Below are positions 14,248 to 51,086 of a DNA stretch of 64,000 bases, piece by piece (the first letter of the stretch is position 1; each line of letters opens with the position of its first letter). The stretch is from a virus (taxonomy: Duplodnaviria > Caudoviricetes): IMG/VR virus record IMGVR_UViG_3300028048_000042, one strand, 5' to 3'. The position numbers and the translations under genes were made by a program. The notes below the pieces were generated by a model. That model was not told the DNA's origin. It did no database searches and saw only the letters and a program-made list of their open reading frames with translations.

Positions 14248-14256
14248 AAATTTTTA

Positions 14257-15030: not shown

Positions 15031-15052
15031 TTAGTAGGAGGTAAAAAGAATT

Positions 15053-15898: not shown

Positions 15899-15918
15899 TT
15901 GATTTCTATATAAAATAA

Positions 15919-15953
15919 AAAAAAGACTAGAAATGTTTCTAGTCTTTTTTTTT
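15919..15953 (+). terminator. Intrinsic terminator after major capsid gene
   Basis: AAAAAGACTAGAAA-tg-TTTCTAGTCTTTTTTT. Confidence 0.85.
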
Positions 15954-15996
15954 GTCGTTTCTATATATAATATGTGTAAAAAAAAGGAAGATAAAC

Positions 15997-22921: not shown

Positions 22922-23420
22922 ATTCTCAGCATTTGACATTGAAAATATAACAAAAAAACAATTGTTGAATGAATTGGATAGTGCTTTAACAAAACTAGAA
23001 GGTTATGCAACAAAAGTCAACAATTGTGATTGTGCACAAATTTATTCTTGTCAAGAAATGAGATGCCAAATTAAAGGCAAGGGTACAGGAAATTGTAATT
23101 GGCATCCATGTCAATCAGCAAAAAATTGTATTGATATTGTTGGATGTCAAAAAATGAGTTGTCAGTATTTTACTTGTCAAAAAATAATTTGTCAGCAAGG
23201 TACAAGTTGTCAAACATGTCAGGCTTGTGAAAAATGCCAAGTGTGTGAAACTTGTGAAAGTCAATGCTTATGCCAAACATGTCAAGTATGTCAAAAACAA
23301 ACCTATGATGTTTATTCTTGTCAGCAGGTTAAGTGTCAGTCGTGTCAGACTTGCCAAGTGTTGTTATGTGAGAATGTTTCTTGCCAAGCTAGAAAATCTG
23401 ATGGTAGAGACTTAGAGTAA
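22887..23420 (+). CDS. Cys/Gln-rich repeat protein, candidate substrate of adjacent radical SAM
   Basis: 27 Cys by my count, 22 followed by Q/E, CQxCQxC runs; Cys-free ~45 aa N-terminal leader; overlaps radical SAM gene end. Confidence 0.8.
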   Translation: MTELNGKITKTKFSAFDIENITKKQLLNELDSALTKLEGYATKVNNCDCAQIYSCQEMRCQIKGKGTGNCNWHPCQSAKNCIDIVGCQKMSCQYFTCQKIICQQGTSCQTCQACEKCQVCETCESQCLCQTCQVCQKQTYDVYSCQQVKCQSCQTCQVLLCENVSCQARKSDGRDLE

Positions 23421-33151: not shown

Positions 33152-34699
33152 TTGAAAATGGAAAACAAACAATTTGGTCAGAGTAAATCATGTGTACTTT
33201 TTCTTTTTGATACTCCAATTCAGTTGTCGGCAGAAAAGGATGAAGCGACAAAAAGAGAAAAACTTCAGGAGTTAATTAATTTATCTCCAAAGCACATTAG
33301 TTTTAAATCTATTTCAGAATTAGCACGTTTTATGGCTACAATTGACAATGCTATACACGCAAATTCTGCATGGAATATTATCACAAGAAAATTCGATGAT
33401 GACATTAAATGTTACTTGGAATATGAAAATAGTGATTTTGCTGTAAAGAAATTTGTCAGCAGAAAGCATAACCGTGAAGACATACCGTATACAGTGGCAG
33501 GATATAACTACTATATTGTTGTGAGCGATTGTGAAGCTTTTTCTATTGAAGAAGAAAAAGGTGTTGTTGATGAAGCACATAAAATTGTAAGAACTAAATC
33601 TAAACATATTGCGGCAATTAAGAATGATTTGGATTATCACACTGTAGATGGGAAAGAAATCAATTATTATCAGGTAAGAAAAGTATTGAGAGAGGAATAT
33701 CCTGATTTGTTCCTTTGGAAGATTGGAATTCGTGCTTTAAAAAATATGAAGCGTGATATGCCAAAGCAGATTAGCGAAAGCGTTTTTGTACGTGATGAAA
33801 ATGCAAAAATCCTCAACAATATTAGATACTATGAAATGAACCATCGAGGGAAAAAATATAAATGGTATGATTTGGATGATTTCTTCGAAAGAATGAATAT
33901 TAAGCAACAGAAGAGAAAATCTTTTCTTCGAGTTATGGGATTGCATACAACACCTCACGGCGAAAATTATATATTTGTAGTTGGAAAAAATGCAAAAGCC
34001 GAAACTCTGTTGATTGAAGAAACCCAATTATATGCTGTCTGTGTTAATTGGAATGAAACTTTCCGCAATATGGTGTGCGGTAAAATTCTTCCTTCCATCA
34101 ATAAGACAGGAAAATTTGATGTACAGCAGTTGAAACAGGAACAAGAGACTACTGATGCAGTTCCTGTAGATGCTGTTACAGTACCTGTTGAAGTAAATTC
34201 AGCTAATACACTGCCTGATATTGCCAACAATACAATGATTTCTGCTGAAATTGTCAATAAGCAGGCTGCTAAAATCACATCAATTCTCAATCGCTATCAT
34301 GATTATCATGGCTGTTTGACTCCTGTTGATATGGATTATTTGAATGCAACCAAACCTGCATTGCACGATATAATTATTGACACTGTTGTTGTGGCAAAAG
34401 GGCTGAAACTACGTAAAAATGAAGATTGTGTCAATATTTATGAAAAATATCATGAGTTTGTTGAAGGAATGTTTGATTGTGATGATGATTACTTCAATCA
34501 CTTGGTAGATGTTATTATGACATATACTTGTCTTGGAGCACTAAACTTTGACAATCAAATGAGTCTGAATGAAAAGGTCAATTTGATTAACAAAAAATCG
34601 TCTTCTTTTTCTATTCAGAACAAAAAATGCATTTTGAGTAGACAGGCTATTTGGGATGATGTTTTAAAGAAATTTGAGAAAAATGTATTAGATGTATAA
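33152..34699 (+). CDS. Protein with internal Bro-N (antirepressor-like DNA-binding) domain
   Basis: LIEETQLY...FRNMVCGKILPSINKTGKF matches Bro-N consensus I.ESGLY...F..WV..EVLPSIRKTG.Y. Confidence 0.7.
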   Translation: MKMENKQFGQSKSCVLFLFDTPIQLSAEKDEATKREKLQELINLSPKHISFKSISELARFMATIDNAIHANSAWNIITRKFDDDIKCYLEYENSDFAVKKFVSRKHNREDIPYTVAGYNYYIVVSDCEAFSIEEEKGVVDEAHKIVRTKSKHIAAIKNDLDYHTVDGKEINYYQVRKVLREEYPDLFLWKIGIRALKNMKRDMPKQISESVFVRDENAKILNNIRYYEMNHRGKKYKWYDLDDFFERMNIKQQKRKSFLRVMGLHTTPHGENYIFVVGKNAKAETLLIEETQLYAVCVNWNETFRNMVCGKILPSINKTGKFDVQQLKQEQETTDAVPVDAVTVPVEVNSANTLPDIANNTMISAEIVNKQAAKITSILNRYHDYHGCLTPVDMDYLNATKPALHDIIIDTVVVAKGLKLRKNEDCVNIYEKYHEFVEGMFDCDDDYFNHLVDVIMTYTCLGALNFDNQMSLNEKVNLINKKSSSFSIQNKKCILSRQAIWDDVLKKFEKNVLDV

Positions 34700-34704
34700 A
34701 AAAG

Positions 34705-34735
34705 AAAAAGCGTCACGTTTCGTGACGCTTTTTTT
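34705..34735 (+). terminator. Intrinsic terminator
   Basis: AAAAAGCGTCACG-ttt-CGTGACGCTTTTT. Confidence 0.9.
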
Positions 34736-34794
34736 GTATGAATGTTATATGGTTGAGTGGGAAAAAGTATATTTTTCTTAGAGGTGACAGGGAC

Positions 34795-35832
34795 TTGAAA
34801 CATACAATACAGGTACATATGACAAATTCATGCAATTTAAAGTGTGAGTATTGTTACATAAAACAAAATTCATTATCGTTAACGCAAGATGTTCTTGAAC
34901 AACAGTTGGCAAAGGTCAAGGAATTGTCATATATGCTGAGTGGTTGTGATTGCGAATATGATGTTACTTATTTTGGTGGAGAGCCTTTATTGAAAATTGA
35001 CAATGTGTTAAAGTTTGATGAATATATTTGTGATAATTTTGATGTATGTCACAAATTTATGCAAACGAATGGTATGTTGTTGACAAAAGCAATCAAAGAA
35101 AAATTGGACGATAGAAAAATAAATATAGGAATTAGTTGTGATGGTTGCAATGACCCAAATCATAAAGAGGTCGAAAGATTATATCGAGAAAAAATAATCC
35201 ATATGCATCCTAAAATGATGGTTGATGGTTATAACGTTGGTTCGTTGATGGAAAATATAAAATATTTTTTTGATATGGCGATAAGAACTCAGTGCAGAGA
35301 TTTTTATATAGATGCTTCATTTGTTAAGGATAAAGTTTGGAATAAAAAATCATTAGAAATTCTTAAAACCCAATTAGACGAGTTAAATGATTTTATATTG
35401 TGGGTATATAAAAATTATAATTATTACTTAAAAATTGGATTTTTAGACAGAGTATTGCAAAACATTATCAAAGGGAAACGTGATTTTATTTGCTTCGCAG
35501 GCAGTACAGGATTTAGTATTACGCCAACAGGAGTGATATATCCATGTTCTAGGTTTTACAGTGCAAATGAATACCCTTTATATGATAGTAATAGAAATGA
35601 ATTTTTTTATGACAACATAGATTTCATTAAAAAGAATAATATAACAAAGAATGAAAAGTGTAATGAATGTGCGATAAACAAATATTGTAATCAAGGTTGT
35701 TATTATTCACAAATAAAAAATGGTGGCATTATTGACGAATATTGTGAAGTGCAAAAGATAGCTTTCCATAAAGTGACAGAGTTATACAAAAAATTCAGAA
35801 AATTCTATAATATAGATATAACGAGGATGTAA
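34795..35832 (+). CDS. Radical SAM/SPASM protein
   Basis: CNLKCEYC, YFGGEPL, QTNG; SPASM CFAG...G.IYPCSRF...CNECAINKYCNQGC...C; start moved to TTG 34795 after RBS GAGGTG. Confidence 0.95.
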   Translation: MKHTIQVHMTNSCNLKCEYCYIKQNSLSLTQDVLEQQLAKVKELSYMLSGCDCEYDVTYFGGEPLLKIDNVLKFDEYICDNFDVCHKFMQTNGMLLTKAIKEKLDDRKINIGISCDGCNDPNHKEVERLYREKIIHMHPKMMVDGYNVGSLMENIKYFFDMAIRTQCRDFYIDASFVKDKVWNKKSLEILKTQLDELNDFILWVYKNYNYYLKIGFLDRVLQNIIKGKRDFICFAGSTGFSITPTGVIYPCSRFYSANEYPLYDSNRNEFFYDNIDFIKKNNITKNEKCNECAINKYCNQGCYYSQIKNGGIIDEYCEVQKIAFHKVTELYKKFRKFYNIDITRM

Positions 35833-35834
35833 AT

Positions 35835-36275
35835 ATGCAAATTTTTAAACAGAATTCATCAATGCGTTCGAAAAAATTTAGAATTGACGATAGAGTTGTG
35901 AGGATTTGCGAAGCGAAATGGCGATACGATATTATTATTAATAATATTATTGCCATAAGTGATAATCAAAAATTAAAAAAGTATTTGCCAAAACGTATAG
36001 TATGTAATAGCAACAAAATAGAATATGATTATGTAGAAGGTAGAGATTTGGTAAAAAATTTCAACATCAAAGATAATTTTTTGTATGCTAAAATGCTATA
36101 TAATTTGTATGCAGAAAAAGTTTTTATTGCAGATATGCGAAGGGAAAACGTTATTGTTAATGAAGATGGGATTTGCATAATAGATTTAGATAGGCAACCA
36201 ATCTCTCGAAAAGAATTTTTGTTGTTTCATATTTGGGAGTTTGTTACTTTTGGATTTTTGGAAAATTTTAAGTAG
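35835..36275 (+). CDS. Minimal protein-kinase-like fold protein; paralogue of 41674..42165
   Basis: YDYVEGRDL hinge, D.RRENVI catalytic loop, IIDLD. Confidence 0.65.
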   Translation: MQIFKQNSSMRSKKFRIDDRVVRICEAKWRYDIIINNIIAISDNQKLKKYLPKRIVCNSNKIEYDYVEGRDLVKNFNIKDNFLYAKMLYNLYAEKVFIADMRRENVIVNEDGICIIDLDRQPISRKEFLLFHIWEFVTFGFLENFK

Positions 36276-36286
36276 GTGAGATATTT

Positions 36287-37345
36287 TTGAGAACGCCAAT
36301 GAGTGTATCAATCAATATGGGTAGTGGCTGTAATTTCCGTTGCAAATATTGTTTTGAGGTGAAAAACGGCGCAGTTAATCATCCAAAATCATTAACTGCA
36401 AAAACAAAAGAAAGAACAATTGAGGTTTTGCATTTGTTGCAAGAACTCCACGATTTGCGAATTGAATTTTGGGGTGGAGAACCGTCTGTATATTTCAAAG
36501 ATATAAAAGAAATCATTGATGAATTTACACCTTATGAAAATGTATCATTCTTTATGTATACAAATGGCTCTTTGGTAAGTCAGTATGCGGATGAATTGCT
36601 GGAAATTCATAAGAATGTTGGTCATAGATTTGAAGTGCAGGTATCTTATGATTATCAGAATTTGAGTAACAATCAGAGATTGCAATTAAATAAAACTGTT
36701 GAAGAAACAGATGAAATGGTTCGAGATGCAATTAAATTCTTCGATAGAAATGGATTCAAGTTTGGAACAAAAACGACTTGTACAATGAAGGACTTGGAAG
36801 AAAACATTTATGATATGTATCTAAATTATGAACAGTTAAATTCTGAATTGAAACATAAAGTTCCATTTGTTTGTACTCCTGATACTTTAGGTTCAGGTAG
36901 TATTGATTATGAAAAAATGCACGAACAGTTTGTAAAACTGATTAGATATTTTTTGAAGAATAAGAAATTCAAGCAAACAGGATTTTTGTGGTTTGACCAA
37001 AATGGTAATAAAGATTGTATGGGTGGAGCAAATTCATTCCAAATTGATATAGATGGCAGAGTAACGTATTGTCATGGATGTTTGTATATGAATGATAAGA
37101 TGTTTTATACAAATATTTTTGAGGATAATTTTTTGCATAAAATTGACCATAATTACCTTGTTGCAAATTCAAAATTTACAAAACCTGAACAATGCTTAAA
37201 TTGCAATTCGCAATTTTGCTTCAGATGTAATGCAATTAATAGTAAGGGAAATCCTGATAATTGGGATAAACCAAATTCACCTGAGGTATGCAAGCTGTAT
37301 CGAAAAATTTCTGAATATATAGAAGCATATTTAAGAATGAAATGA
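36287..37345 (+). CDS. Radical SAM/SPASM protein
   Basis: CNFRCKYC, FWGGEP, YTNG; CMGG...DG.VTYCHGC...CLNC.SQFCFRC...C. Confidence 0.95.
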   Translation: MRTPMSVSINMGSGCNFRCKYCFEVKNGAVNHPKSLTAKTKERTIEVLHLLQELHDLRIEFWGGEPSVYFKDIKEIIDEFTPYENVSFFMYTNGSLVSQYADELLEIHKNVGHRFEVQVSYDYQNLSNNQRLQLNKTVEETDEMVRDAIKFFDRNGFKFGTKTTCTMKDLEENIYDMYLNYEQLNSELKHKVPFVCTPDTLGSGSIDYEKMHEQFVKLIRYFLKNKKFKQTGFLWFDQNGNKDCMGGANSFQIDIDGRVTYCHGCLYMNDKMFYTNIFEDNFLHKIDHNYLVANSKFTKPEQCLNCNSQFCFRCNAINSKGNPDNWDKPNSPEVCKLYRKISEYIEAYLRMK

Positions 37346-37448
37346 ATAATTTTTTAGCTGTAGCACTTTGTTATTTGTTTTTGTGTTTTTTGTATTAAAT
37401 GGATAGAGTGCAATAAAATAAAAAAATAATAATGGAAGTGATACAAAA

Positions 37449-38810
37449 ATGTCAATGACAGCAACTAAGTACATTTCAGCATTTTATCAAATCATAAAAG
37501 ACCCAACAGGCACTTTCCCTATTTGTAGACCATATGGTACAAGCGGAAACGATAAAGGGTATGATTTTGGTACTGCATTTTGGGATGGTACTTATTACAA
37601 AGCAAATGCAGATAATGCTAAAGGATTAGCAGGATTTAATAGACGAGATAAAATGTTGAGAGAGACATTTAGTACGGCTGAACCTATTACTAATGTGGAA
37701 TGGAATCAGTTGATTACGAAACTGAGACAGGAATTCGCAATTCGTTGCGAATTTAATGGTTCATATGTTCCATCTGTAAAAACTGTTGGTGTTACAGAAA
37801 CAGGTGATAGAACAAAATCAGGCTCTGACAATCATCAATTCTTTAGTCCAAAAGATGAAATCCTAAGAGAAGATTATAAGAATATCTATCGTGATATTAT
37901 GAGTTTGCTTGTATATGAAATTCCTGTTGAAGATGCCGTAAATAATCCTCGTCTTCCTATGGATAATTTCTCATTCAACCGCAAAAATACCGCAGGTGGA
38001 TATGGCGGTGATTCATCTAACTTGGATGTTAATCCTAACGCAGAAGCCATTAATGAAGGTACTCGTGTGGGGAATAACTGGTGGACAGGACAGAAAATGC
38101 GTGAATATATGTATAGACACGCAACAGGTGCTACTGCAAATAAGGTTATTACAAGTAATGCTAATAACGGTATTTTGTTGACTATGGGATTACCAAGTGA
38201 CATTTTAACTAATAAGGAATATGGTTATACTACATTTGGTAGCCGTAATGTTGCAGCATATATTCCTGGTTCTGATATGAATACAACAAAAACAGTAAGA
38301 AGTAGCAAAAGACCTTATGGTAATACAGACTATCTTGCAAAAACAGTTGATGAAAATGGCACAACTCATATTTTGAAAAATTCAAATGGATTTTATCAGG
38401 TTTCTCAGGAATTTAAGGATATGGTTGCAAAACGTAAACAGTTCTTGGGTGGTAATGTTAAGGTTAAGTGTACACGTACTGTTTTAACAGGTAAAGATGA
38501 ATATGGTATGCCAAAATATGTAACAGAAAAAGAAGAGCGTGAAATGCCACTTGTAACAGCGTTGACATCTGTTACTGTTTCAGGTAACTATACTGTAGAT
38601 ATTAGCGCAGATAGCGTAGGAAGATATTACATGGCTATGGTAAATCAGTTAGCAAGAACTTGTGTATGTAACTGTAATTATTGCTCTTGCTTTGGTCATG
38701 AAGCTAGTTGTATTTGTTATGTTGTAAAAGTTTCAGGTTGGTGCTATTCTTATCAGTATGATTTTGATGCAAACAGAGGTTGGATTTCACCTGAAACTGT
38801 TGCAAAATAA
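37449..38810 (+). CDS. Fibre-like virion protein with Cys-rich C-terminal tip (candidate radical SAM substrate)
   Basis: G/T/N-rich body; C-terminal RTCVCNCNYCSCFGHEASCICY...WCY; follows two SPASM genes. Confidence 0.65.
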   Translation: MSMTATKYISAFYQIIKDPTGTFPICRPYGTSGNDKGYDFGTAFWDGTYYKANADNAKGLAGFNRRDKMLRETFSTAEPITNVEWNQLITKLRQEFAIRCEFNGSYVPSVKTVGVTETGDRTKSGSDNHQFFSPKDEILREDYKNIYRDIMSLLVYEIPVEDAVNNPRLPMDNFSFNRKNTAGGYGGDSSNLDVNPNAEAINEGTRVGNNWWTGQKMREYMYRHATGATANKVITSNANNGILLTMGLPSDILTNKEYGYTTFGSRNVAAYIPGSDMNTTKTVRSSKRPYGNTDYLAKTVDENGTTHILKNSNGFYQVSQEFKDMVAKRKQFLGGNVKVKCTRTVLTGKDEYGMPKYVTEKEEREMPLVTALTSVTVSGNYTVDISADSVGRYYMAMVNQLARTCVCNCNYCSCFGHEASCICYVVKVSGWCYSYQYDFDANRGWISPETVAK

Positions 38811-38825
38811 GAAAGGATTATTTTC

Positions 38826-39098
38826 GTGGAAAAACAGATTACAGAAAAAGAAACAAAAGAATTGGAAACGCAGATTAGACTCTTGTGCGAGTATATGAGT
38901 ATGACAGAAGAGTTTATTAAGCCTATTGATGAAATTGCTTGCAAAGCAATTGATAATATCATTAGCATGACAATGATTAGCCTTGGACGAAAGCATGGGT
39001 TGGATTATACATCTAGTGATAAGTCAAAAATTGATGAAAAGAAAGAAAAATCAATTGATGACATTATGAAAGATATAAATGAAGGGACGAAAGATTAA
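38826..39098 (+). CDS. Small hypothetical protein
   Basis: RBS AAAGGA, GTG start. Confidence 0.65.
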   Translation: MEKQITEKETKELETQIRLLCEYMSMTEEFIKPIDEIACKAIDNIISMTMISLGRKHGLDYTSSDKSKIDEKKEKSIDDIMKDINEGTKD

Positions 39099-39730
39099 TG
39101 GCACAGATGTTATTTTATTCAGGTATTATGAAACAGGGGGAGAAAAATTTCCTTGTTAATCCTTTTGAAAAAATTGTTGGTGAGCCTATTTGCTTGCAGA
39201 AAGATGAATATGTTAGTTTGACAGCAGAAGCATATGACAAATTGGTTAATGTTCTTGATTTAAAGTATCGTGAACCAATGTGCATTGTTTATGTTGAAGG
39301 TACAGTTGATGCTGATACGATGGTTAAACTTGAAGACTTGAAGTTCGTAGAGCAGAAACTTGATGCGACAGAGGAAGAAAAGTTGGATATGTACAAAGAA
39401 AAATCCATTCGCATTATGAATGAAATTATTTCAAGTCAGATGATGATTTCCAACTTTGAATTGTTCCATTTCTTTAAATTGAATCATTATCTTGAAGCAA
39501 AAGGCATTTTCATCATTGATGAAAATCGAGAGGAAGAATACATGAAGGTAATTGAAAGTGGCGATGCAGATACATTGCAGGTTCTTTCTGAATATCTTGA
39601 TGCGCTCGATGAATTTAATGTTATTGATGAAAAATATACAAAATATAAAGAGTATAAGGATAAGGTAAAAGCTGCTCAGACCGCAAAGGAAGTTGAGGAA
39701 GTATTTTATGAGTTTACAGCCAAACTATAA
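39098..39730 (+). CDS. Putative fibre assembly/chaperone protein
   Basis: C-terminal KVKAAQTAKEVEEV resembles the I.AA.T.EEV ending of tail-fibre assembly (DUF4376-like) proteins. Confidence 0.45.
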   Translation: MAQMLFYSGIMKQGEKNFLVNPFEKIVGEPICLQKDEYVSLTAEAYDKLVNVLDLKYREPMCIVYVEGTVDADTMVKLEDLKFVEQKLDATEEEKLDMYKEKSIRIMNEIISSQMMISNFELFHFFKLNHYLEAKGIFIIDENREEEYMKVIESGDADTLQVLSEYLDALDEFNVIDEKYTKYKEYKDKVKAAQTAKEVEEVFYEFTAKL

Positions 39731-40532
39731 AAATATAGTTTATATGACTGATAAATCTTATCTTTTTCAAACTTACGTTTCAATGTTATCTTTGAAACAA
39801 AATAAACGCTGTAATGTGAGTTACAGCGTTTATTTATTATGTATTGAATTTGATGATTTGGGTAAGATTGAGTCATTAAACAGTGAAGATTTTCAAATCA
39901 AACCAATTTATATCAAAAAAAACATATTCAAAAGACCTGATAATGCAGGTGTTGTGTATTATAAGTTGTTATTGCATGAGTTGTTGGATTGCGATGTTGT
40001 TTTTCACATTGATTCTGATACGGTGGTCGTAGATGATGTATCGGATATTTTTGATATAGATATATCTGATTATTATTGTGGTGCAGTAAGAGACAAGATA
40101 AAAGGGTTTAGATATTTTAACGCAGGGAACGTGTTGTTTAATTTGAAAAAAATTAGAGAAGATGTTGTAAATGATACAGACACAATGTATGTTTATTATG
40201 ACAGGTTAAATAAACAGTTGCAAGATGAAAAATGTTTTCTTTGGGAACAAGATGTTTTAAATGAAGCATTTAAAGGGAAAATTAAATATATTCATTATGG
40301 ATATAACTTTTTAGTAAACACATATAGCAAATATGGATTTAATGAATTGGTGAGATTGTATGGAGAACCTGTAAAATCAGAAAATTTAAAAATTTTGCAT
40401 TATGCAAGTTTCCCAAAACCTTGGAAAAGACCCAATTTGTTTGGGCAAATTTGGAAGATGTATGCAGAAGAAACTGCAAATAAGGAAAAAGAAAAAATGA
40501 TATTGAAGGTGGCTTGTCGTGAATTTAAATGA
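39708..40532 (+). CDS. Glycosyltransferase family 8
   Basis: IVYMTDKSY, HIDSDTVV, YFNAGNVLFNL, EQDVLN, ILHYASFPKPW; start moved to ATG 39708. Confidence 0.93.
   Translation: MSLQPNYKNIVYMTDKSYLFQTYVSMLSLKQNKRCNVSYSVYLLCIEFDDLGKIESLNSEDFQIKPIYIKKNIFKRPDNAGVVYYKLLLHELLDCDVVFHIDSDTVVVDDVSDIFDIDISDYYCGAVRDKIKGFRYFNAGNVLFNLKKIREDVVNDTDTMYVYYDRLNKQLQDEKCFLWEQDVLNEAFKGKIKYIHYGYNFLVNTYSKYGFNELVRLYGEPVKSENLKILHYASFPKPWKRPNLFGQIWKMYAEETANKEKEKMILKVACREFK
39800..39835 (+). terminator. Terminator-like 15-bp perfect hairpin inside the GT8 coding sequence
   Basis: AAATAAACGCTGTAA-tgtgag-TTACAGCGTTTATTT. Confidence 0.6.
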
Positions 40533-41661
40533 TAATAATATGTTTTTGTATCAGTTTATCTTGGGGACTGATATGAAAGTAAAAACTCGAAACCAAGACA
40601 CTATTTTAGTTACTTGCAATATTGTATCAAGGGAAGACAAAAATTATTTGTGGGGAGCAGAGAAGTATTGCGTTAAAATTTGTAAAGCGTTGTCAAAAAA
40701 ATACAAAGTGCATTTGTTTCAACATGCAAAGGATTTTCTTGAATTGGATAATGTAGTTGTGCATTCTAATATAGATAATTTCTTTTCAAAGGAAAGAATG
40801 AAAGTAACTGCAAATAAAGTTAAGGCAGTTGCACCAAAATGTATTCTTTGTAATGCAGGCAGTGGACAGCAAGCATTGTATTGGACTATTATTGCAAAGA
40901 TGGTAAATGTACCAATTATAATGTTCTTTCATAATGAACCTGAATATATGTTAAAAACAATTAGCAATATATGGGGCATGAATTACATTAAGAACCAAAA
41001 AGTTGTAAAAAACTCGCAAAAACTGTATGATATGGTCTTGGAAAATTGCAACAAATTAGCATTTTTGTTACCTCAGTATATTGATAAACGATATGAGAAG
41101 AAATCATATGTTTTTTACAATTGTGTAGAATTACCTGAACACGTTGATGTTGAACAAGAAAGACAGAACATCTTGTATGTTGGTCGTATAAATTCGGATG
41201 TTAAACGTACAGATTTACTAATAGATGCAGTAAAAGATACGGAATATCCATGTTATATTTGTGGATATAATTATTATGGTCAAGGCTATATAGACATGAG
41301 TTGGTATGAAGATACAAATATCCATTATGAAGGGTATCAGGAAAATGTAGCTGATTATTATAAAAATGCTAAAGTTCTTGTAATCCCATCTTTATTGGAA
41401 GGTTTGCCAACAGTTGCTTTAGAAGCTATGTCATATGGTGTTCCTGTGCTTGGATTCAAAGAATGTAAATCAATAAATGATATAGTAAAAGATGGATATA
41501 ATGGTTGGGTAATTGAAAATGATTTGAAGGGGAAAATATCTGAAATTATGTCCATTGAAGATATGACAGAAATTAGAAAAAATTGTATAGAAGAATCAAA
41601 AAAATATAGCATAGAAAAAATCATGGTTGAAATTGAAAAAGCGATAAAATCATGTCGGTAA
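40519..41661 (+). CDS. Glycosyltransferase family 4 (GT-B)
   Basis: WGAE, ILYVGRI...KR, PS..EGLPTVALEAMSYGVPV, VKDGYNG. Confidence 0.93.
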   Translation: MNLNDNNMFLYQFILGTDMKVKTRNQDTILVTCNIVSREDKNYLWGAEKYCVKICKALSKKYKVHLFQHAKDFLELDNVVVHSNIDNFFSKERMKVTANKVKAVAPKCILCNAGSGQQALYWTIIAKMVNVPIIMFFHNEPEYMLKTISNIWGMNYIKNQKVVKNSQKLYDMVLENCNKLAFLLPQYIDKRYEKKSYVFYNCVELPEHVDVEQERQNILYVGRINSDVKRTDLLIDAVKDTEYPCYICGYNYYGQGYIDMSWYEDTNIHYEGYQENVADYYKNAKVLVIPSLLEGLPTVALEAMSYGVPVLGFKECKSINDIVKDGYNGWVIENDLKGKISEIMSIEDMTEIRKNCIEESKKYSIEKIMVEIEKAIKSCR

Positions 41662-41673
41662 AGGGATATTGAT

Positions 41674-42165
41674 ATGAAAATTTTAACAACTGATAAAAAT
41701 AAAAATTTATTAAGTAAAGACACTGACTTTAAATTTGTTAGTAATGGGTGTGTTTATAGGTTTGTCAGTGAAACAGTTAAACAAGATATATTGATAAATT
41801 ATCATAATATTGTTGATAAAAATTTACAAAAATATTTACCGAAAAATATTTGTATTAATCGCAATATGGTTACTTATCAATATGTGGAAGGTAGAGATTT
41901 GGAATATTGCTATTCAATAAGAATGAATTATTTATATGCAAAAATGTTGTTCGAGCTTTGGAAATCAAATTGTTATATTTTTGACCTTTCTCGAAGAAAC
42001 GTTATTTTTGATGGAGAAAAAATTGTCATTATAGATTTGGATTGTAAGCCAAAAGCAAATTGTACAAAATGGCAATATGCAAAAGAATGTTTGTATCGTT
42101 TTAGAGATACAATGGTAAATTGTGGGACTATGATAAAAAGATTGGAAAGATTTTTATGCGAGTGA
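41674..42165 (+). CDS. Minimal protein-kinase-like fold protein
   Basis: YQYVEGRDL, DLSRRNVI, IIDLD. Confidence 0.65.
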   Translation: MKILTTDKNKNLLSKDTDFKFVSNGCVYRFVSETVKQDILINYHNIVDKNLQKYLPKNICINRNMVTYQYVEGRDLEYCYSIRMNYLYAKMLFELWKSNCYIFDLSRRNVIFDGEKIVIIDLDCKPKANCTKWQYAKECLYRFRDTMVNCGTMIKRLERFLCE

Positions 42166-43055
42166 ATTTAATTTATTTTTTGTATGAGTTAAATGGAGCT
42201 TATACTTCATTTGAAGACTTGTTCTACAATTTGAAGCGTTTTACAGATAATGATGTTCGATTTATTATTTTATATGAAGATAAGGATGTGCTTGTTCGAT
42301 TTAAAGAATATTTGGCTTTCGGAACAGGTATTTGCTATTTACAAATTGAAAAAGAAGGGTATCATAATATGAAATTTCCTATCAAATACGATATTAAGGG
42401 AGATATAAATGTTATTAGTACCGAAATTATTCAGTTGGAATGGCATGACAGATTTGTACAACATTCAAACAAAACATATTTGCTATATCCTGCCTTTGTA
42501 TATAAAGATGAAGGACTAGACCACAGCATTTTTGAGTATCAAATGAATTATATTAAAGAACATAATGTTTTGACAATTTGTAATGAATTTAATGCAAAGT
42601 ATGTGGATAATAGTTTTGTTTGGTATATGAAGTTTTCACCTGAACGAATTGAAAAAATAAAAAAGCTTGTTAGTTTTGAAAATGATACTTTGGTAGCAGA
42701 AGATTATTACAAGAATAAAATGGAAGGTAGAAATATAAAACCTTTTTCGTATAAAAAATATGAATATTATAGATATGACAAGAAAAATGATTTCAACAAC
42801 TATACTGATAATGGAGCAAGATATTATGAAAATATCGGTAAATTAATGTTTGAATTTGTTTTTCTTGGCAAAGAATCGACATATTCACCAAAGAATAAAA
42901 AGTTCTTTGATGGATTGAGTGAATTTATGAGATATATTGGATATGATGACGAAAAGGAATATACTTTTACTAAAGATGATATGCCATTGTTAAAAAAGAA
43001 ACTGTATATGGATAAAGATGATGAAATATTAAAACTCTTTAGAGAAGAAGGTTAA
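42156..43055 (+). CDS. Hypothetical protein, possible glycosyltransferase-fold; paralogue of 17946..18794
   Basis: Shared motifs; start moved to ATG 42156. Confidence 0.55.
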   Translation: MRVNLIYFLYELNGAYTSFEDLFYNLKRFTDNDVRFIILYEDKDVLVRFKEYLAFGTGICYLQIEKEGYHNMKFPIKYDIKGDINVISTEIIQLEWHDRFVQHSNKTYLLYPAFVYKDEGLDHSIFEYQMNYIKEHNVLTICNEFNAKYVDNSFVWYMKFSPERIEKIKKLVSFENDTLVAEDYYKNKMEGRNIKPFSYKKYEYYRYDKKNDFNNYTDNGARYYENIGKLMFEFVFLGKESTYSPKNKKFFDGLSEFMRYIGYDDEKEYTFTKDDMPLLKKKLYMDKDDEILKLFREEG

Positions 43056-43058
43056 AAA

Positions 43059-44651
43059 ATGAAAATTTTAGGTATTCAGTGTTATCAGGATTATAATGTT
43101 TGTTATTATGATACAGAAACAAAAGAGTTAAAATATATTGAGTTAGAGAAATTGTTGAAGAGAAAACATTTTTCTTTTCATAGTGAAAAACTCGATTATA
43201 TGCATGAAATTGATAGGATATATAATGACAACCTTAGAAATAATCTTTATAAGACGCAGAAAATTATTCACAAAGAATTGGGCGTTGATAGATTTGACCT
43301 AATTTGTTGGAATTATACACGATTTGAAGATGGATATTTGAAAAAAGAATCTTTTGATTTTATTAAAATGTTGGAAAAATGTGATATTCAAAAGTTCCAC
43401 CATCAAGAAAACCATGTATTACCTGCAATTGTGGAAAATCATTTACAAGAAGCATTGTGTGTCTCCGTTGATGGTAAAGGTGATGGAAACCATGCAATTT
43501 ATACTTGGAAAGATGGCAAATTGACAAAGTTGTTTCAGGAGCATAGATTTTCTTATGGTATGTTCTATGAAGTCCTTTCTGCATATTTCTTAACAGATGA
43601 CCATGTGTACTATCAAGGTGCAGAAGGTAAATTCATGGCGTATGCAGGGTTATCTAATAACTTTGTAAAAATTGTGGATATAGATTATTTTATGGATAAG
43701 ATTAAAAATACTGATTGGAATAATTGGGAAGAAAAAGTAAAAATTCAAAATTATATTTTTAATTTTTTAGATACACAATCTCAGTATTTTGATAAAAAAG
43801 ATTTAGCATATACCATGCAAAAATTGTGGTTGGATTCTTTGATTCGTGATATTGCAAAATATCGTCACGGACAAAGGAATTTAGTTATTTCAGGCGGTTG
43901 TGCTCTTAATTGTATGCTTAATTATTTGTTGATAAAAACAGGTTGGTTTGAAAATGTATACTTCACACCAATTGCTTCTGATGTTGGTCAGTCGTATGGA
44001 GCTGTATTGAATTACTTGCTGAGATATAAGCCTGAAGAAATCAAACATATTAATACGAGACAATATTCTGTTACCGAAATGTATAGAGATAAAGATTATT
44101 TTAAATCAATTGAATCTAATTTTGCAGATATTAATGTAAATAAAATTGTTGATGCTTTGGCTGATGGGAAAGTAATTGGTGTTTGTCGTGGCAACATTGA
44201 GATGGGGCCTCGTGCTTTGGGCAATCGTAGTATTTTAGCGGCACCATTTAAGGCAGAAATGAAAACGAAGCTAAATGAATTAAAAGGAAGAGAACAATAT
44301 CGACCTTATGGTATTCTTGTCCCTCGTGAAGAAATGGGCAAATATTTTGATATTGATGTAGATGCAACATATATGAATGTTTTAGCTTATTGCAATGATT
44401 CAAAATTATTACTTGGTGCGCAACATCATGATAAAACAGTTCGTGTGCAGACTGTGGATAAAAAGAATAATCCGTGGCTTTATAATTTATTAATGGCGTT
44501 TAAGAAAAGAACAGGTGTACCTATTCTTATCAATACTTCATTCAATGATAGTGGTTTGCCTATTTTTAATTATGTTGAAGATATGTATAGAATGTATCAA
44601 GAAAAATTAGATGGATTGGTTATTGATGAAAAAATGATTATGAAGGATTGA
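43059..44651 (+). CDS. Carbamoyltransferase (NodU/CmcH family)
   Basis: HHQENH, VDGKGD, EGKFMAYA, SGGCALNC, SDVGQSYGA, EMGPRALGNRSILA, RVQTV, INTSFN. Confidence 0.95.
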   Translation: MKILGIQCYQDYNVCYYDTETKELKYIELEKLLKRKHFSFHSEKLDYMHEIDRIYNDNLRNNLYKTQKIIHKELGVDRFDLICWNYTRFEDGYLKKESFDFIKMLEKCDIQKFHHQENHVLPAIVENHLQEALCVSVDGKGDGNHAIYTWKDGKLTKLFQEHRFSYGMFYEVLSAYFLTDDHVYYQGAEGKFMAYAGLSNNFVKIVDIDYFMDKIKNTDWNNWEEKVKIQNYIFNFLDTQSQYFDKKDLAYTMQKLWLDSLIRDIAKYRHGQRNLVISGGCALNCMLNYLLIKTGWFENVYFTPIASDVGQSYGAVLNYLLRYKPEEIKHINTRQYSVTEMYRDKDYFKSIESNFADINVNKIVDALADGKVIGVCRGNIEMGPRALGNRSILAAPFKAEMKTKLNELKGREQYRPYGILVPREEMGKYFDIDVDATYMNVLAYCNDSKLLLGAQHHDKTVRVQTVDKKNNPWLYNLLMAFKKRTGVPILINTSFNDSGLPIFNYVEDMYRMYQEKLDGLVIDEKMIMKD

Positions 44652-44657
44652 TATTAA

Positions 44658-45416
44658 TTGAAACATATACCTTTGATTGAATATCACCTAACAAACCATT
44701 GCAATTTAAACTGTAAGGGGTGTGCTCATTTTGCACCTCTTGCAGAGCCTTGGTTTGCAGATGTAAAGCAATTTGAAAAAGATTTAAACAAATTAACAGA
44801 TAAAGTAATTATTGATGAATTGATTATGTTTGGTGGAGAACCATTATTGCATCCAACAATATGTGATTTCTTTGAAATGGCAAGAAAAATTTTACCACAT
44901 GCAAAAATTTGTGTTTTAACGAATGGAGTTAATTTATTGAAAGAGTTGCCTAAATTAAAGGATTCTCTTGTTAAGAATGAAATTATTGTTGATATAACAA
45001 GTTATCCGATTAACGTTAATTATAAAATGACATTGAAAATGTTAAAAGCATTTGGAGTAAAATATAAAATTTATAATGATTTAGAACCAATAAAAACATT
45101 AAGAAAACATAAATTATCTCATGAAAAGAAAGAAAATACATGGGATTGCTTAATGATAAATTCTAAATCTGTGCAGTTGAAAGATGGGAAATTGTATATT
45201 TGTCCAATACAAGCGTATATTGATATTTTTAACAAATATTTTAATGAGAATTATGAGGTTGACGAATCGGATATTTTGACTCTTACAGATGATACAACAG
45301 ATGATGAAATCTTAAATATGTATTATCACAAAAATGAATTTTGCAAATTTTGTAGAGAACCAATTGTAGGAAATAAATATTCTACATCAAAAAGAGATAA
45401 GCAAGAATGGACGTAA
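44658..45416 (+). CDS. Radical SAM protein (CxxxCxxCxHFAP subtype)
   Basis: CNLNCKGCAHFAP, GGEPLLHP, TNG, GKLYICP, C-terminal CKFC...EW. Confidence 0.93.
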   Translation: MKHIPLIEYHLTNHCNLNCKGCAHFAPLAEPWFADVKQFEKDLNKLTDKVIIDELIMFGGEPLLHPTICDFFEMARKILPHAKICVLTNGVNLLKELPKLKDSLVKNEIIVDITSYPINVNYKMTLKMLKAFGVKYKIYNDLEPIKTLRKHKLSHEKKENTWDCLMINSKSVQLKDGKLYICPIQAYIDIFNKYFNENYEVDESDILTLTDDTTDDEILNMYYHKNEFCKFCREPIVGNKYSTSKRDKQEWT

Positions 45417-45431
45417 AATTAAAAAAGTGTT

Positions 45432-46271
45432 ATGATTAGAGAGAATTATGCAATGGATATAAAATATTGTTTTAAGACTCAAATCGTGGATGAATGTAAC
45501 TTGAATTGCTGTGGGTGCGACCATTTTGCACCCATAGCTGATTCTTGGCATCAACCGTTGGGAGATTTTATTAAAATGATGAAAACTCTTAAAAATACAG
45601 TTGGTGATAGCATAAAAGAAATTGAGTTATACGGTGGTGAACCATTATTACATAAGGATTTATATAGAATGCTTATGGCGTGTGAAATTATATTTCCTCA
45701 AACGGTAATATTATCAATAGAAAGTAATGGTTTATTGCTTGATAGTTTTTTACAAAAGAATAAATCTTTGCAAAAAGATACGAGAATTGAATATCAGATT
45801 ACAGAATATGCAACAACACAAGGAATTGTGGATAGATTAAAAAATAAATATCCTAATTTAGTGATTTTTAGGTCTAAGCATACACCTTTAGAATTAAACA
45901 CAAATAAAAGCTGTTGGAAAGATTGTATGTTTAATATAAATCTTCAGTATGAGGAAAATGAAGAAAGACAATGGGAAATATATAAGCATTGTTACTGTAA
46001 AAGCTTTGAAGAACATAGCGTTTGTTTGCGAAATTGGAAAATTTCTCCATGTCCTTTAGTTATGTGTATAGATATATTTGATGGTTACTTTGGCGAACAT
46101 TTTTATAATGAGGAAAATTATGTCAAAGTGACAGAATCATTAAATAAAGATGATTTGTATAAAATGGCGCATGTTCCTTGTGAACATTGTAAACGCTGTG
46201 GGAATGTAGTATATGGATTTCCTTATAAAATGTCAGAGAAGAAAAAATCTGAATGGGTGGTAGAAAAGTGA
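45432..46271 (+). CDS. Radical SAM protein (CxxxCxxCxHFAP subtype)
   Basis: CNLNCCGCDHFAP, GGEPLLH, SNG, CEHCKRC...SEW. Confidence 0.93.
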   Translation: MIRENYAMDIKYCFKTQIVDECNLNCCGCDHFAPIADSWHQPLGDFIKMMKTLKNTVGDSIKEIELYGGEPLLHKDLYRMLMACEIIFPQTVILSIESNGLLLDSFLQKNKSLQKDTRIEYQITEYATTQGIVDRLKNKYPNLVIFRSKHTPLELNTNKSCWKDCMFNINLQYEENEERQWEIYKHCYCKSFEEHSVCLRNWKISPCPLVMCIDIFDGYFGEHFYNEENYVKVTESLNKDDLYKMAHVPCEHCKRCGNVVYGFPYKMSEKKKSEWVVEK

Positions 46272-47581
46272 TAAAGGATTTAATAACAAAACAAGGAATT
46301 ATGATTGATATAACCAATGCTTGTGTTAATCAGTGCGGTAATTGTATGCGATTTTGTGGTTATCATGATGACCCATTTTTTATGGAATTTGAATATTTTA
46401 AAAAAGTTGTTGATAGCTTGCACGATTTTGATGGGCAAATAGGTATAATTGGCGGTGAGCCAACATTACATCCTGATTTTGTTAAAATGGTTGAGTATAT
46501 AAGAGATACATATCCGCATAAAAAAGAAAAAGGATTTGTAAGACAACCAATCTCTGATGTTAATGGATATATTTTTAATAATAATGTGGATGATGTTGGC
46601 AAATTCAAGTTGTTTACTTGTGCAAAGACGCAACAATTTTATGATAATTTTGAGTTAATAGATGATGTATTCGAATCATTTAGATTTAATGACCACAGTC
46701 AAGGAACAAGACATTTTACAACCTTGGTTGATTATAAAGATTTGGGGTTGTCTGATGGCGAATTTAAAATGTTGGAAAATGATTGTTGGGTACAAAATTA
46801 TTGTTTTGCTACGGTAACGCCTAAAGGTGGTTTCTTCTGCGAAATGGCAGGAGCTTTAGATATGCTTTATGGTGGAGATGGCGGTTTCGAAATTAAAGAT
46901 GGTTGGTGGAAACGTTATCGTAAAGATTTCGAGTGTCAAGAACAATGGTGTGCACATTGTGGTGCAAGATTAGGTTTGCCAATGAGATTGGATTCAGAAA
47001 ATAAAGACTACGTTTCTAAAAGCGTTGTCGATAATTTAAAGCATACCAAACGCATACGTAATAATGATTATAAAATAATAACCAAAGAAGAATATCAAAA
47101 AAATTGGATGAAATGGCGAGAAGAAAAATCTAAAAAATTAGATTTAGTTGATGAAATTTGTGTTGATAATAATAATCCATTTTTTAGACCTCAACACATA
47201 TCATTTGTTAATAAGTATGATGATATATTGAAGCAAGATGATTGGGTTATATGTGGGGATTATGCAGGTAAAGAAAAATATGTTCTTGATTTTATGAATA
47301 ATCATTTTTTTAATATAGGGTGTTTGTACTATATGGAAGATGAACCGATATTTGCGGTTAATGTAAAATCTAATGCATTGAAGGATTTAACGAAGATTGA
47401 TATGAATCCTTGGGGATATTATGATTTACAAAAAATAGTGAAAATAAATAATTTTGAAGATGATGTATTAAAAGCAACAGATGAAGTTATGTCTGTTAGG
47501 GGAATTATGGATGTAAGTGTTGCAAAGCAAAAAGCAGAATTAATGAAAAAGATAAGGGATAAAATGAAATGTTCGACATAA
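46268..47581 (+). CDS. Radical SAM protein with extra C-terminal domain
   Basis: CVNQCGNC.RFCG, GGEPTLHP, CWVQNYC, FFCEMA, CAHC; GTG start 46268. Confidence 0.9.
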   Translation: MIKDLITKQGIMIDITNACVNQCGNCMRFCGYHDDPFFMEFEYFKKVVDSLHDFDGQIGIIGGEPTLHPDFVKMVEYIRDTYPHKKEKGFVRQPISDVNGYIFNNNVDDVGKFKLFTCAKTQQFYDNFELIDDVFESFRFNDHSQGTRHFTTLVDYKDLGLSDGEFKMLENDCWVQNYCFATVTPKGGFFCEMAGALDMLYGGDGGFEIKDGWWKRYRKDFECQEQWCAHCGARLGLPMRLDSENKDYVSKSVVDNLKHTKRIRNNDYKIITKEEYQKNWMKWREEKSKKLDLVDEICVDNNNPFFRPQHISFVNKYDDILKQDDWVICGDYAGKEKYVLDFMNNHFFNIGCLYYMEDEPIFAVNVKSNALKDLTKIDMNPWGYYDLQKIVKINNFEDDVLKATDEVMSVRGIMDVSVAKQKAELMKKIRDKMKCST

Positions 47582-48378
47582 AAACCATTTTAAAAAGCAA
47601 AATTTGGATGAAAGAAAATCTTGGCGAAATAGATATTCCTGTTGTGAATCATTGTAATCTTAATTGTGCAAGCTGTGACCATTTTGCTCCATTAGCGGAA
47701 AAGCATTTTTATAAATTGGAAAACTATATTAAAAATCTTGATAGACTTAAAGCCTTGTTAAAAGATAAAAAAATATATAGAATTAATTTGATGGGTGGAG
47801 AGCCGTTGTTACATCCTCAATTAATTGATTTTTGTAGAGTAACAAGAGAAAAATTTTCAGATACAAATATATTCATTACAACCAATGGCATTTTATTGCC
47901 ACAGTGGGAGAAAGAAAATGGGCATATTTTAAAAAAGCTAAATATAAGAATTTTGGTTACAGAATACAACAAAGATAAAAATTTCTATAAAATGAATTTG
48001 CTGAAAGAAAAAAGCAGTCAAAAAAGTTATCAGTATTGCAATAATCGTAATATAAATGTACTTGAAATAATTGATAATGTCGATGAAGAGTTTCACGAGT
48101 TTTATTCCGATTTCCCATGTACGCAGTTAAATGAAAATGGAGATTATTTTTCATGTATTATTCCTGCAAATATTGAAATCTTTAATAAACATTTTAAAAC
48201 AAAATATGAACTGATAGAAGGTCAAGACTTTGTTAACATTTTTAACATTGATGATTTGTCAGAAATGATTAGGATTACGCAATGCAAAAAAATACCATTT
48301 TGTGATTATTGTGGGAAGAAAACTGTCGTGAAATGGAAAGGAAGTAAAAATGATGAACAAGAATGGGTTGAACAGTAA
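47569..48378 (+). CDS. Radical SAM protein (CxxxCxxCxHFAP subtype)
   Basis: CNLNCASCDHFAP, GGEPLLHP, TNG, CDYC...EW. Confidence 0.93.
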   Translation: MFDIKTILKSKIWMKENLGEIDIPVVNHCNLNCASCDHFAPLAEKHFYKLENYIKNLDRLKALLKDKKIYRINLMGGEPLLHPQLIDFCRVTREKFSDTNIFITTNGILLPQWEKENGHILKKLNIRILVTEYNKDKNFYKMNLLKEKSSQKSYQYCNNRNINVLEIIDNVDEEFHEFYSDFPCTQLNENGDYFSCIIPANIEIFNKHFKTKYELIEGQDFVNIFNIDDLSEMIRITQCKKIPFCDYCGKKTVVKWKGSKNDEQEWVEQ

Positions 48379-50191
48379 TAATCCATTAAATTTGATGAAT
48401 AATATTTATAAATTTGTAAAAGGACGAAGAGCAGAATTGTTGTTGGTTGAGTTACCGACTGTCAATGAATTGTCAAGAAAAACAGAATTGCAAGTTATAA
48501 GTAGTATGATTTGTGGAGATATGGTATATAAAGATTTGTCCACGCATAATAATGAATGTGAAATGTTCTTTGATGAATATAACAAAAAGATGTTTAGAAA
48601 GGTTATTTATGATAATAAAGACCTATACGAAAAGTGTTTTGATGATTTTTCTTCAGATTATATTGATAAAATTTGTGCATGTGACCCTGATTTAATTCAA
48701 AATAATAATTATTTTTGTATGGAAGACTACGAATCTGATTTTATGAATATTAAGGATGGAGTTCGAAAAACAGCAAATCAAATTGATGATAATAATCATA
48801 ATATTTTTGTGTTTGGTAACTCAACAACTTTTGGTTATTATGTTGCTGACAATGAAACTATTGCAAGTTTTTTACAAAAATATGTTGCACCATATAAATA
48901 CAATGTTTACAATTATGCTACAATTAATGATACGTTGTTAAATATTTATAACCGTGTTATTAATACAGGTATTTGTGATAATGATATTGTGGTTATTGGT
49001 ATTCCAAAGGGATTTCTTGGGAAAGATGCGTTTTTGTTTCCTCATGTTGATACAACAGATGGATTTTATATTCATACTGAAAAAGAAAACTTGATTGACC
49101 GTGCACATTTGACAGCTTATTGTCATGATTGGATTGCTGAAATGATTTTCAACAATATTAAAAAAGATATAGATTGTTTCGATGTGAAAGATGAAACTGT
49201 AGAATCGCAGGTAAAAATGCTTATTTCAGATTTCAGAAGAGAATGTGAAATGTTTGATGATTCTTTGCAGGTGGGTGCTTCTGTAATGAGTTGTAACCCA
49301 TTTACATCAGGTCATAGGCATCTTGTGGAAATTGGCAGTAAAATGTTTGATTATTTTGTCGTGTTTTTGATGCAAGAAGGAATGAATCTTGTTTTCGATA
49401 AAGCAGAATGTGAAAATTTGGTTCGCGTAGGAGTAGAAGATTTAGACAATGTAATTGTTGTACCAATGTCCGATATGTTTACTTATCAAACATTTTGGCC
49501 TGAATACAATGATGTTGCACTTAGACATAGTAAAAATTATATAGGATTGAATACTTATAATCTTTTAAATGTTGTAGGTAAAGCATTCAAAAGGCTTAAT
49601 ATCAAACATTTTCTTTGCGGTATCGAAACAGATGATAACATCACAAGACAACATATTGTTCAAGCAAAAACGGTATTTCCACAAAATGACATTAATGTTA
49701 TTTGTATTCCTCGCAAACAAATGAAAAATAATAAATTGAGCATTAGTGGTACGGAATGTCGTAAGATGTTAGCACAAGGTGAATATGATAAATTAAACGG
49801 ATTTCTTCAACCACAAATTGTTGATTATATTCGAGAAAATAAATTGACTGTTCAGCAACCAAAATTTCCAACTAAGATGATTGTGGAGTTGCTTGAAAAA
49901 GAATCAAAGAGAATTTTAACAAAAAACAAAAAAGATTTGAATTTGCTTATTGTTGATAAAGAAGATTGCTTGAAGAATATTAAAGCTTTGAGAAAAATTG
50001 TAAAAGGTTGTTCGAAAGAGGAATTACTGTCAATTGTTCAATTACATATTCAAGCATCTGTTTGGGCAGGTTACTTATATTTAATAAATGTAGAAATGGA
50101 TGAAGACCTGTACAATATTATTATGAGTAAATTGAAAGATGATGAATATAAGCAGAAATTGAGGGATAAACATGATGGAGTTGCAAACTAA
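48350..50191 (+). CDS. Fusion of SGNH/GDSL-like domain and CitC (citrate-lyase ligase)-like nucleotidyltransferase domain
   Basis: IFVFGNSTTFG and DRAHLT (SGNH blocks I and V); MSCNPFTSGHRHL (CitC MNANPFTxGH) and ISGTECR. Confidence 0.75.
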   Translation: MMNKNGLNSNNPLNLMNNIYKFVKGRRAELLLVELPTVNELSRKTELQVISSMICGDMVYKDLSTHNNECEMFFDEYNKKMFRKVIYDNKDLYEKCFDDFSSDYIDKICACDPDLIQNNNYFCMEDYESDFMNIKDGVRKTANQIDDNNHNIFVFGNSTTFGYYVADNETIASFLQKYVAPYKYNVYNYATINDTLLNIYNRVINTGICDNDIVVIGIPKGFLGKDAFLFPHVDTTDGFYIHTEKENLIDRAHLTAYCHDWIAEMIFNNIKKDIDCFDVKDETVESQVKMLISDFRRECEMFDDSLQVGASVMSCNPFTSGHRHLVEIGSKMFDYFVVFLMQEGMNLVFDKAECENLVRVGVEDLDNVIVVPMSDMFTYQTFWPEYNDVALRHSKNYIGLNTYNLLNVVGKAFKRLNIKHFLCGIETDDNITRQHIVQAKTVFPQNDINVICIPRKQMKNNKLSISGTECRKMLAQGEYDKLNGFLQPQIVDYIRENKLTVQQPKFPTKMIVELLEKESKRILTKNKKDLNLLIVDKEDCLKNIKALRKIVKGCSKEELLSIVQLHIQASVWAGYLYLINVEMDEDLYNIIMSKLKDDEYKQKLRDKHDGVAN

Positions 50192-51083: not shown

Positions 51084-51086
51084 AGT

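Follow-up and report, generated by a model that had tools for sequence, protein, structure and literature searches.

Two radical SAM enzymes beside a cysteine-tailed protein

The 64,000-nucleotide stretch of viral DNA analyzed here (the window; IMG/VR record IMGVR_UViG_3300028048_000042) belongs to a jumbo phage that is an uncultured relative of Bacillus phage G; the open reading frame (ORF) at 15053 encodes its major capsid protein, which is 77% identical to the phage G capsid, the portal gene lies at position 5923, and a contig of 318,451 bases carries one of the window's proteins. Our subject is a cassette in this window in which genes for a pair of radical S-adenosylmethionine (rSAM) enzymes stand close to a gene for a 453-amino-acid protein with a cysteine-rich tail. 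A preliminary description of the DNA had given the gene order as rSAM, kinase-like, rSAM, a 453-amino-acid protein, a small ORF, and an assembly-like protein, and we found each gene where it had been placed, all on the + strand. The main components are listed here, with AlphaFold2 (AF2) confidence given as pLDDT (the predicted local distance difference test).

34795-35832, + strand: rSAM1, a radical SAM/SPASM enzyme of clade A; 345 amino acids; TTG start; C13/17/20; seven invariant SPASM cysteines; no N-terminal recognition element (RRE) of the kind known from peptides that ribosomes make and that are modified after translation (RiPPs)
36287-37345, + strand: rSAM2, a radical SAM/SPASM enzyme of clade B; 352 amino acids; C15/19/22; seven invariant SPASM cysteines and an invariant histidine; no N-terminal RRE
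37449-38810, + strand: putative substrate of 453 amino acids; three repeated amphipathic helices (residues about 82-99, 140-157, and 387-403), variable insertions, then the cysteine tail
38661-38759, + strand: conserved tail of that protein, residues 405-437; eight cysteines; 89% identity; invariant columns
38826-39098, + strand: helical-looking partner of 90 amino acids; specific to the G-like lineage and kept in all loci of the narrow family described below
39098-39730, + strand: partner of 210 amino acids (phrog_25260); belongs to the core of the wider cassette; AF2 pLDDT 89

Both enzymes carry CxxxCxxC and score above the cut-off of the Radical_SAM family (PF04055), and the TTG start of rSAM1 is shared with the start site in relatives. 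The SPASM model TIGR04085 gave rSAM1 40 bits against a cut-off of 27, PF13186 matched both enzymes weakly, and the seven SPASM cysteines are invariant within each of clades A and B. The top NCBIfam model of both enzymes was PapB (NF047865; 107 bits for rSAM1 and 69 bits for rSAM2, cut-off 340), and other maturase models also responded (TIGR03974 at 78/28 bits, cut-off 425; TIGR04463 at 34 bits for rSAM2, cut-off 525). A phylogenetic tree put the window enzymes into separate clades with support values of 100/99 and 97/95. Most cassettes contain one enzyme from each clade, so that we take the two to be an ancient, dedicated pair.

The preliminary description had placed eight cysteines close to the C terminus of the 453-amino-acid protein, and they are indeed there, at residues 405-432 of 453 (window 38661-38744), a concentration with a binomial p of about 3e-7 at an assumed cysteine content of 2.5%. 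It had also let the protein end in CVCNCNYCSC, but 39 more residues follow that motif, most of them within the conserved tail. Relative to its narrow family, the window protein is 89% identical in the tail and 31–37% identical in the middle. The tail offers candidate acceptor residues for cysteine cross-links in N408 and N410 (spaced as CxxN) and in the invariant E418 (Cx3E, four residues past C414), and its invariant aromatic residues are Y411, Y424, W431, Y433, Y435, and Y437.

Linkage of cysteine ladders and enzyme pairs across phages

Searching IMG/VR with a DNA pattern for CxCNCNYC returned 109 loci, 36 of which were real genes and 73 chance occurrences. The 36 genes encode repeated helices followed by heptads of the form C-T-C-(N/D/Q)-C-N-Y, and the window tail is a short form of this widespread phage ladder (C-x-C-(N/D/Q)-C-N-Y), in which the residue following CxC is N 198 times, D 135 times, and Q 22 times. 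Ladder proteins range from 150 to 530 amino acids, many having only 150–200. Phages that differ strongly in genome and habitat keep the same ladder, whereas the body of the protein varies.

An enzyme of the window's family was present in the fetched DNA at 27 of the 36 ladder loci versus none of the 73 chance loci; seven of the nine ladder loci lacking an enzyme have less than 1.1 kb of upstream flank. In the reverse direction, a strict ladder lay within 7 kb of 37 of 46 clade-A enzyme clusters (formed at 90% identity) versus none of 73 other phage rSAM loci. The nine clade-A clusters without a strict ladder comprised two with variant ladders, one from a Campylobacter phage whose ladder lies elsewhere, two at contig ends, and four that we could not explain. 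The comparison of cysteine-tipped proteins with rSAM pairs across phages that the preliminary description had called for thus reveals linkage both ways, and the objection it had anticipated, a lack of co-occurrence, falls away. The enzyme pair and the cysteine-tailed protein belong together.

The 210-amino-acid partner extends this association, with homologs beside 22 of the 36 ladder genes. The window protein joins the wide family through its tail, its enzymes, and this partner, and the window locus is probably a divergent copy of a widespread four-part phage system consisting of rSAM A, rSAM B, a helix-repeat protein with a cysteine ladder, and the 210-amino-acid partner. We regard this as a real, conserved phage system, a form of radical-SAM protein maturation that is apparently unpublished: we found no description of a phage structural protein being modified by radical-SAM enzymes in a literature search whose coverage left out most subscription journals.

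The closest relatives of the window protein form a narrow, G-like family of twelve proteins of 348–525 amino acids plus a 255-amino-acid class, and all of the genomic contexts retrieved for it are uncultured phage-like contigs. Every locus with enough flank has the same order (900-amino-acid gene, rSAM1, rSAM2, cysteine-tail gene, 90-amino-acid gene, 210-amino-acid gene, and genes for glycosyltransferases of families GT8 and GT4), with a carbamoyltransferase gene and further rSAM genes after GT4. Phage G does not have the cassette; neither enzyme nor the 453-amino-acid protein has a match there.

Among 50,697 phage records, the top matches of both enzymes and the sole matches of the 210-amino-acid partner were Campylobacter Firehammerviruses. 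These cultured members of the system have enzymes of the same two clades, a partner of the same family, and a ladder protein (534 amino acids, encoded 2.2 kb before the clade-B enzyme); they differ from the window in that the genes occupy two places in the genome and the ladder is internal and longer. In CP220 the system corresponds to CPT_0023, CPT_0184, CPT_0015, and CPT_0180 (PHROGs 1802, 25260, and 26958). CP220 and CPt10 were reported to carry 11–12 rSAM genes, a number called highly unusual, and papers on Campylobacter phages counted the rSAMs among unusual metabolic genes and described a 21-bp repeat in CPT_0180 without connecting one with the other (PMC2853527). This puzzle of 2010 becomes testable, as two of the rSAM genes gain a candidate substrate in CPT_0180.

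Several loci elaborate on or depart from the common arrangement. T4-like cassettes (L010:5914-6780, L030:3090-3983, L071:11005-11904) have a third rSAM of ~290 amino acids without SPASM cysteines, which together with a 125-amino-acid acidic protein directly precedes the ladder gene; neither occurs in the window's lineage. At L053:4721-7285 and L073:7386-9443, three or four tandem ladder paralogs, which differ in the body and agree in the tail, accompany a single enzyme set. We did not find a bacterial or archaeal origin for the system: matches in genome collections included a single in-frame cysteine-tail gene beside an rSAM gene, on a prokaryotic genome contig (L221:1596-3339) where a 142-amino-acid protein with a similar cysteine tail directly follows the enzyme.

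Probable virion location, proposed chemistry, and competing explanations

Three observations bear indirectly on where the ladder proteins end up. In many members of the wider family the ladder runs into an S74 domain, with the start of that domain (SDxRLK) present in 23 of 51 members and PF13884 (Peptidase_S74) confirmed in four; the Peptidase_S74 chaperone is typical of trimeric fibers and spikes. In one T4-like cassette a tail-fiber-like gene directly precedes the enzymes. Finally, the ladder protein of the Firehammervirus IBB_35, gene 3-9, appears in the virion mass-spectrometry table of that phage at 2.6% coverage, an identification that we made from gene order, length, and mass (60,317 Da computed, 60,318 listed). 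These observations make it likely that the product is part of the virion, so that the earlier proposal of a virion structural protein gains support at the level of the family, one of whose members was detected in purified virions. At two loci (L086:1117-1413 and L116:3160-3459) the S74 chaperone is split, with its first dozen residues on the ladder protein and the remainder in a separate ORF. The CP21 and WX1 copies of the IBB_35 gene (L118:6001-7605; CP21_105) are annotated as N-acetylneuraminate pyruvate lyase, a name that looks wrong because the product is a cysteine-ladder protein without a Pfam or NCBIfam match.

The enzymes probably act on the tail, and we lean toward thioether formation as the chemistry. 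PapB, the top model of both enzymes, has the peptide motif CX3D/E, and the Cx3E spacing (C414-E418) is invariant in the phage tail; QhpD, with its partner QhpC, acts on a protein subunit, as the phage enzymes would. The phage system differs from PapB/PapA and QhpD/QhpC in its scores (above), its lack of an RRE, its putative substrate of 150–530 amino acids, and its A/B enzyme pair. The preliminary description had taken it as established that SPASM enzymes modify CxCxC motifs, which in that form is not established; the motif published for a protein is C-X-X-Q/D, that of CrpA, for which ranthionine cross-links were shown (PMC13692751). The phage ladder contains spacings of both the C-X-X-Q/D and the CX3D/E type. 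CrpC, the enzyme that matures CrpA in Methanococcus voltae (TIGR04463), is likewise a seven-cysteine SPASM rSAM encoded beside a full-size protein with C-terminal cysteine repeats, its seven cysteines leave one iron open, and this iron has been proposed as the binding site of the substrate thiol (PMC13692751); the N/D/Q residue after CxC in phages matches the CrpA motif. However, CrpC is a single archaeal, cellular enzyme with a fused RRE, whereas the phages have two RRE-less enzymes and mostly Asn as candidate acceptor; rSAM2 scores far below the TIGR04463 cut-off, and phages are unmentioned in that report (PMC13692751).

Two further systems are similar in layout. In HXS (HxsABCD), two rSAMs and a small protein mature a repeat-bearing protein (PMC13128918), but this is a bacterial defense system with His-x-Ser repeats and a periplasmic effector; the phage enzymes reach 37–39 bits against a TIGR03978 cut-off of 370, and the window sequence contains no HxS repeats. 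The CXXX-repeat system (TIGR04114/04115/04119) also places an rSAM/SPASM enzyme beside a cysteine-repeat target, but the phage repeat is a heptad with CxCxC spacing, TIGR04115 scores 47 against a cut-off of 350, and the target models have no match. By analogy, then, the phage system would work most like CrpC/CrpA or QhpD/QhpC and be organized like HxsABCD, while scoring outside all of these families.

We favor, at a probability of roughly 0.55, a reading in which the two enzymes staple a virion appendage protein by joining cysteines to Asn, Asp, Gln, or Glu through thioethers, possibly before the protein is glycosylated. The cassette would be expressed late in infection, a timing suggested by a shared upstream motif (TAT-N8-TAGA; see below). 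Because neither enzyme has a fused RRE, recognition would probably proceed through the helix ahead of the tail, for both SPASM enzymes, or through a partner. The enzymes would remove hydrogen from side-chain carbons and couple the tail cysteines to acceptors close by, with C405-N408, C407-N410, and C414-E418 as the predicted ranthionine-type thioether links of the window protein. Assisted by the 210-amino-acid partner, the stapled protein would then be built into the particle and form a small appendage in the region of the tail or baseplate, and the downstream operon of glycosyltransferase, carbamoyltransferase, and rSAM genes may decorate it further. More tentatively, several unrelated large-phage lineages may encode a dedicated two-enzyme rSAM pathway through which a structural protein of the finished particle receives ladders of Cys-Asn/Asp/Gln thioethers and perhaps, in a later step, sugars.

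A number of findings weigh against thioether stapling of a virion protein. Every score of the enzymes against an enzyme family falls far under the curated cut-off, and no RRE is fused to either enzyme, where the SAM motif begins as early as residue 13-15 and there is no space for one ahead of it. The 453-amino-acid protein has no Pfam, PHROG, NCBIfam, or PDB sequence match, and its AF2 model, of helices and hairpins, is of low confidence (pLDDT 59, under 50 in the tail) and has no significant Foldseek or VIA fold match, so that the label 'fiber-like' given to it earlier lacks support. It lacks an S74 domain, and no recognizable tail gene adjoins it. Detection in virions concerns a distant member at the low coverage given above, and the same list also includes a likely non-structural ExsB homolog. 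Four clade-A loci with adequate flank (L250, L261, L288, and L311) have no ladder, and the co-occurrence counts are uncorrected for relatedness among loci that are phylogenetically non-independent. Lastly, the first helix of the window protein scored 8.6 bits against the short ladder proteins, where the decoy maximum was 8.3 and a 256-amino-acid ortholog scored 22.

The preliminary description had envisaged a receptor-binding fiber, taken here to be trimeric, that meets the host with its stapled C-terminal tip; the mini-kinase and a chaperone for assembly would be further components. The S74 domains that follow the ladder in the wider family fit such a fiber, as do the tail-fiber-like gene before the enzymes of the T4-like locus and the weak DUF4376 and phrog_1348 leads of the 210-amino-acid partner. 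Yet the kinase is in no related locus, no fiber fold or family was matched, and many members have only 150–200 amino acids. Host-range tips are usually variable. A ladder that stays constant across very different phages while the body varies is the opposite pattern, and with the tail varying less than any other part of the protein (89% versus 31–37%), a receptor-binding tip is unlikely, as is the whole fiber scheme. Prediction of a homotrimer of the 255-amino-acid ortholog scored 0.00 and gave no answer, and we counted it neither for nor against.

It is equally improbable that the tail cysteines serve as ligands of a metal or of an Fe-S cluster, or pair as disulfides, while the enzymes act on something else. 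The HxH metal sites of T4-type fiber needles would be a model for CxC pairs contributed by several chains, the CxC spacing sets the cysteines on one face of a strand, and both rSAMs lie far below all thioether-synthase cut-offs. This explanation accounts neither for the two-way linkage with a dedicated enzyme pair nor for the interchange of N, D, and Q at the acceptor position. Slightly less credit goes to the idea that the protein is the substrate of another chemistry, such as epimerization to an alternating D/L helix, C-C cross-linking through Tyr or Trp, or preparation of a handle for glycosylation. The retention of two different enzymes suggests that there may be two reactions, and the conserved Tyr and Trp residues listed above make other cross-links possible; a glycosylation/rSAM operon follows in all narrow-family and many distant loci, and an unexplained +8 Da change was seen with HxsB/C (PMC13128918). 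Set against this, the top models of both enzymes are thioether or Cys-peptide maturases, with PapB first, and a SPASM domain with seven cysteines has a free site that would suit the thiol of a substrate.

The possibility that the tail is modified but the product stays out of the virion, acting as an effector within the cell or after release (an HXS-like exclusion factor, for instance, or a RiPP after cleavage), has the slimmest chance among these alternatives. The combination of two rSAMs, a small protein, and a repeat protein matches the anti-phage architecture of HXS (PMC13128918), the helix and cysteine core resemble a leader and core, and the evidence for a virion location is thin. But the protein has no obvious signal peptide, we found neither a protease nor an exporter in the cassette, and the S74 fusions, the upstream motif common to the portal and other virion-region genes, and the member detected in particles all count against such an effector. 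If the stapling of a virion protein is correct, virion assembly includes an oxygen-sensitive, RiPP-type enzymatic stapling step, RRE-less enzyme pairs that cross-link folded proteins become new tools for protein engineering, and some of the rSAM load of group II Campylobacter phages, so far unexplained, is accounted for.

Upstream motif, accessory genes, and neighboring operons

The remaining features of the cassette are the following.

34705-34733, + strand: hairpin, a probable intrinsic terminator ending the 515-amino-acid gene upstream, with the cassette beginning after it; 13-pair stem (scored on the - strand), with the T run on the + side
34768-34782, + strand: TAT-N8-TAGA, a probable late promoter element; overlaps the rSAM1 ribosome-binding site; present here in 0 of 7 relatives
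35835-36275, + strand: kinase-like ORF of 146 amino acids; RIO/WaaY-type C-lobe motifs kept; a strain-level insertion outside the core system
37393-37407, + strand: TAT-N8-TAGA upstream of the cysteine-tail gene; 6 of 7 relatives have it, at -47 to -61

TAT-N8-TAGA occurred upstream of genes in 10 of 55 regions versus 1.4 in shuffles (maximum 6), with a peak at N8. It also precedes the portal gene and other virion-region genes and for this reason is likely to be a late promoter. The earlier statement that it stands before both units of the cassette is correct for the window, with sites at 34768 and 37393, but the rSAM1 site belongs to this genome alone. We rejected the motif as a late promoter of phage G itself, where there were 2 matches versus 2.2 expected, which indicates that it is lineage-specific.

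The mini-kinase retains DxxxxN and DLD, apparently has Arg at the expected beta-3 Lys, and scores below family cut-offs. Its homologs are confined to close strains and a paralog in the window (41674-42165); neither copy is found in related loci, where its slot is empty or filled by a DNA methylase gene. We therefore rejected it as a core component, and what had been presented as part of the system is a passenger. Gaps within relatives' cassettes hold DNA methylase genes and another insert (L001:8122-8859, L006:5080-6282, L128:9497-10726), suggesting that these gaps are insertion hot spots. A further insertion of this genome, missing in relatives, is the 515-amino-acid antirepressor-like gene at 33152-34733, which lies between an 898-amino-acid gene and rSAM1 and has its own sigma-A-type promoter (33092) and terminator. 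The 898-amino-acid gene itself had no match in cultured phages or IMG/VR in a single-sequence search.

The 210-amino-acid protein had been called assembly-like, for which we found weak likeness to DUF4376-type tail-associated proteins and a weak phrog_1348 match, both leads only. The fold matches of its AF2 model were generic helical bundles, with none to PqqD-like stand-alone RREs, and a role as chaperone or adaptor is possible. We found no support for the 90-amino-acid ORF as a TIGR04116 partner or as the counterpart of the 125-amino-acid acidic protein of T4-like cassettes, to which it has no detectable homology.

After the cassette, window positions 39693-52124 encode GT8, GT4, a carbamoyltransferase, GT2, a citrate-lyase-ligase-like protein, and several short rSAMs. 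All close relatives have the core of this block behind the cassette, and many distant ladder loci are likewise followed by glycosyltransferase-like and rSAM genes, a recurrence suggesting that the block may decorate the ladder protein or the virion. Elsewhere in the window, genes for a DegT-type aminotransferase and a UDP-sugar dehydrogenase flank the capsid genes (13168-17259), which indicates phage-made sugars. At 21773-23420, a third rSAM of the SPASM type, belonging to neither clade A nor clade B, is encoded next to a 177-amino-acid protein whose 27 cysteines lie in CQ-rich repeats preceded by a similar helix; the two are a candidate second, independent enzyme/substrate pair.

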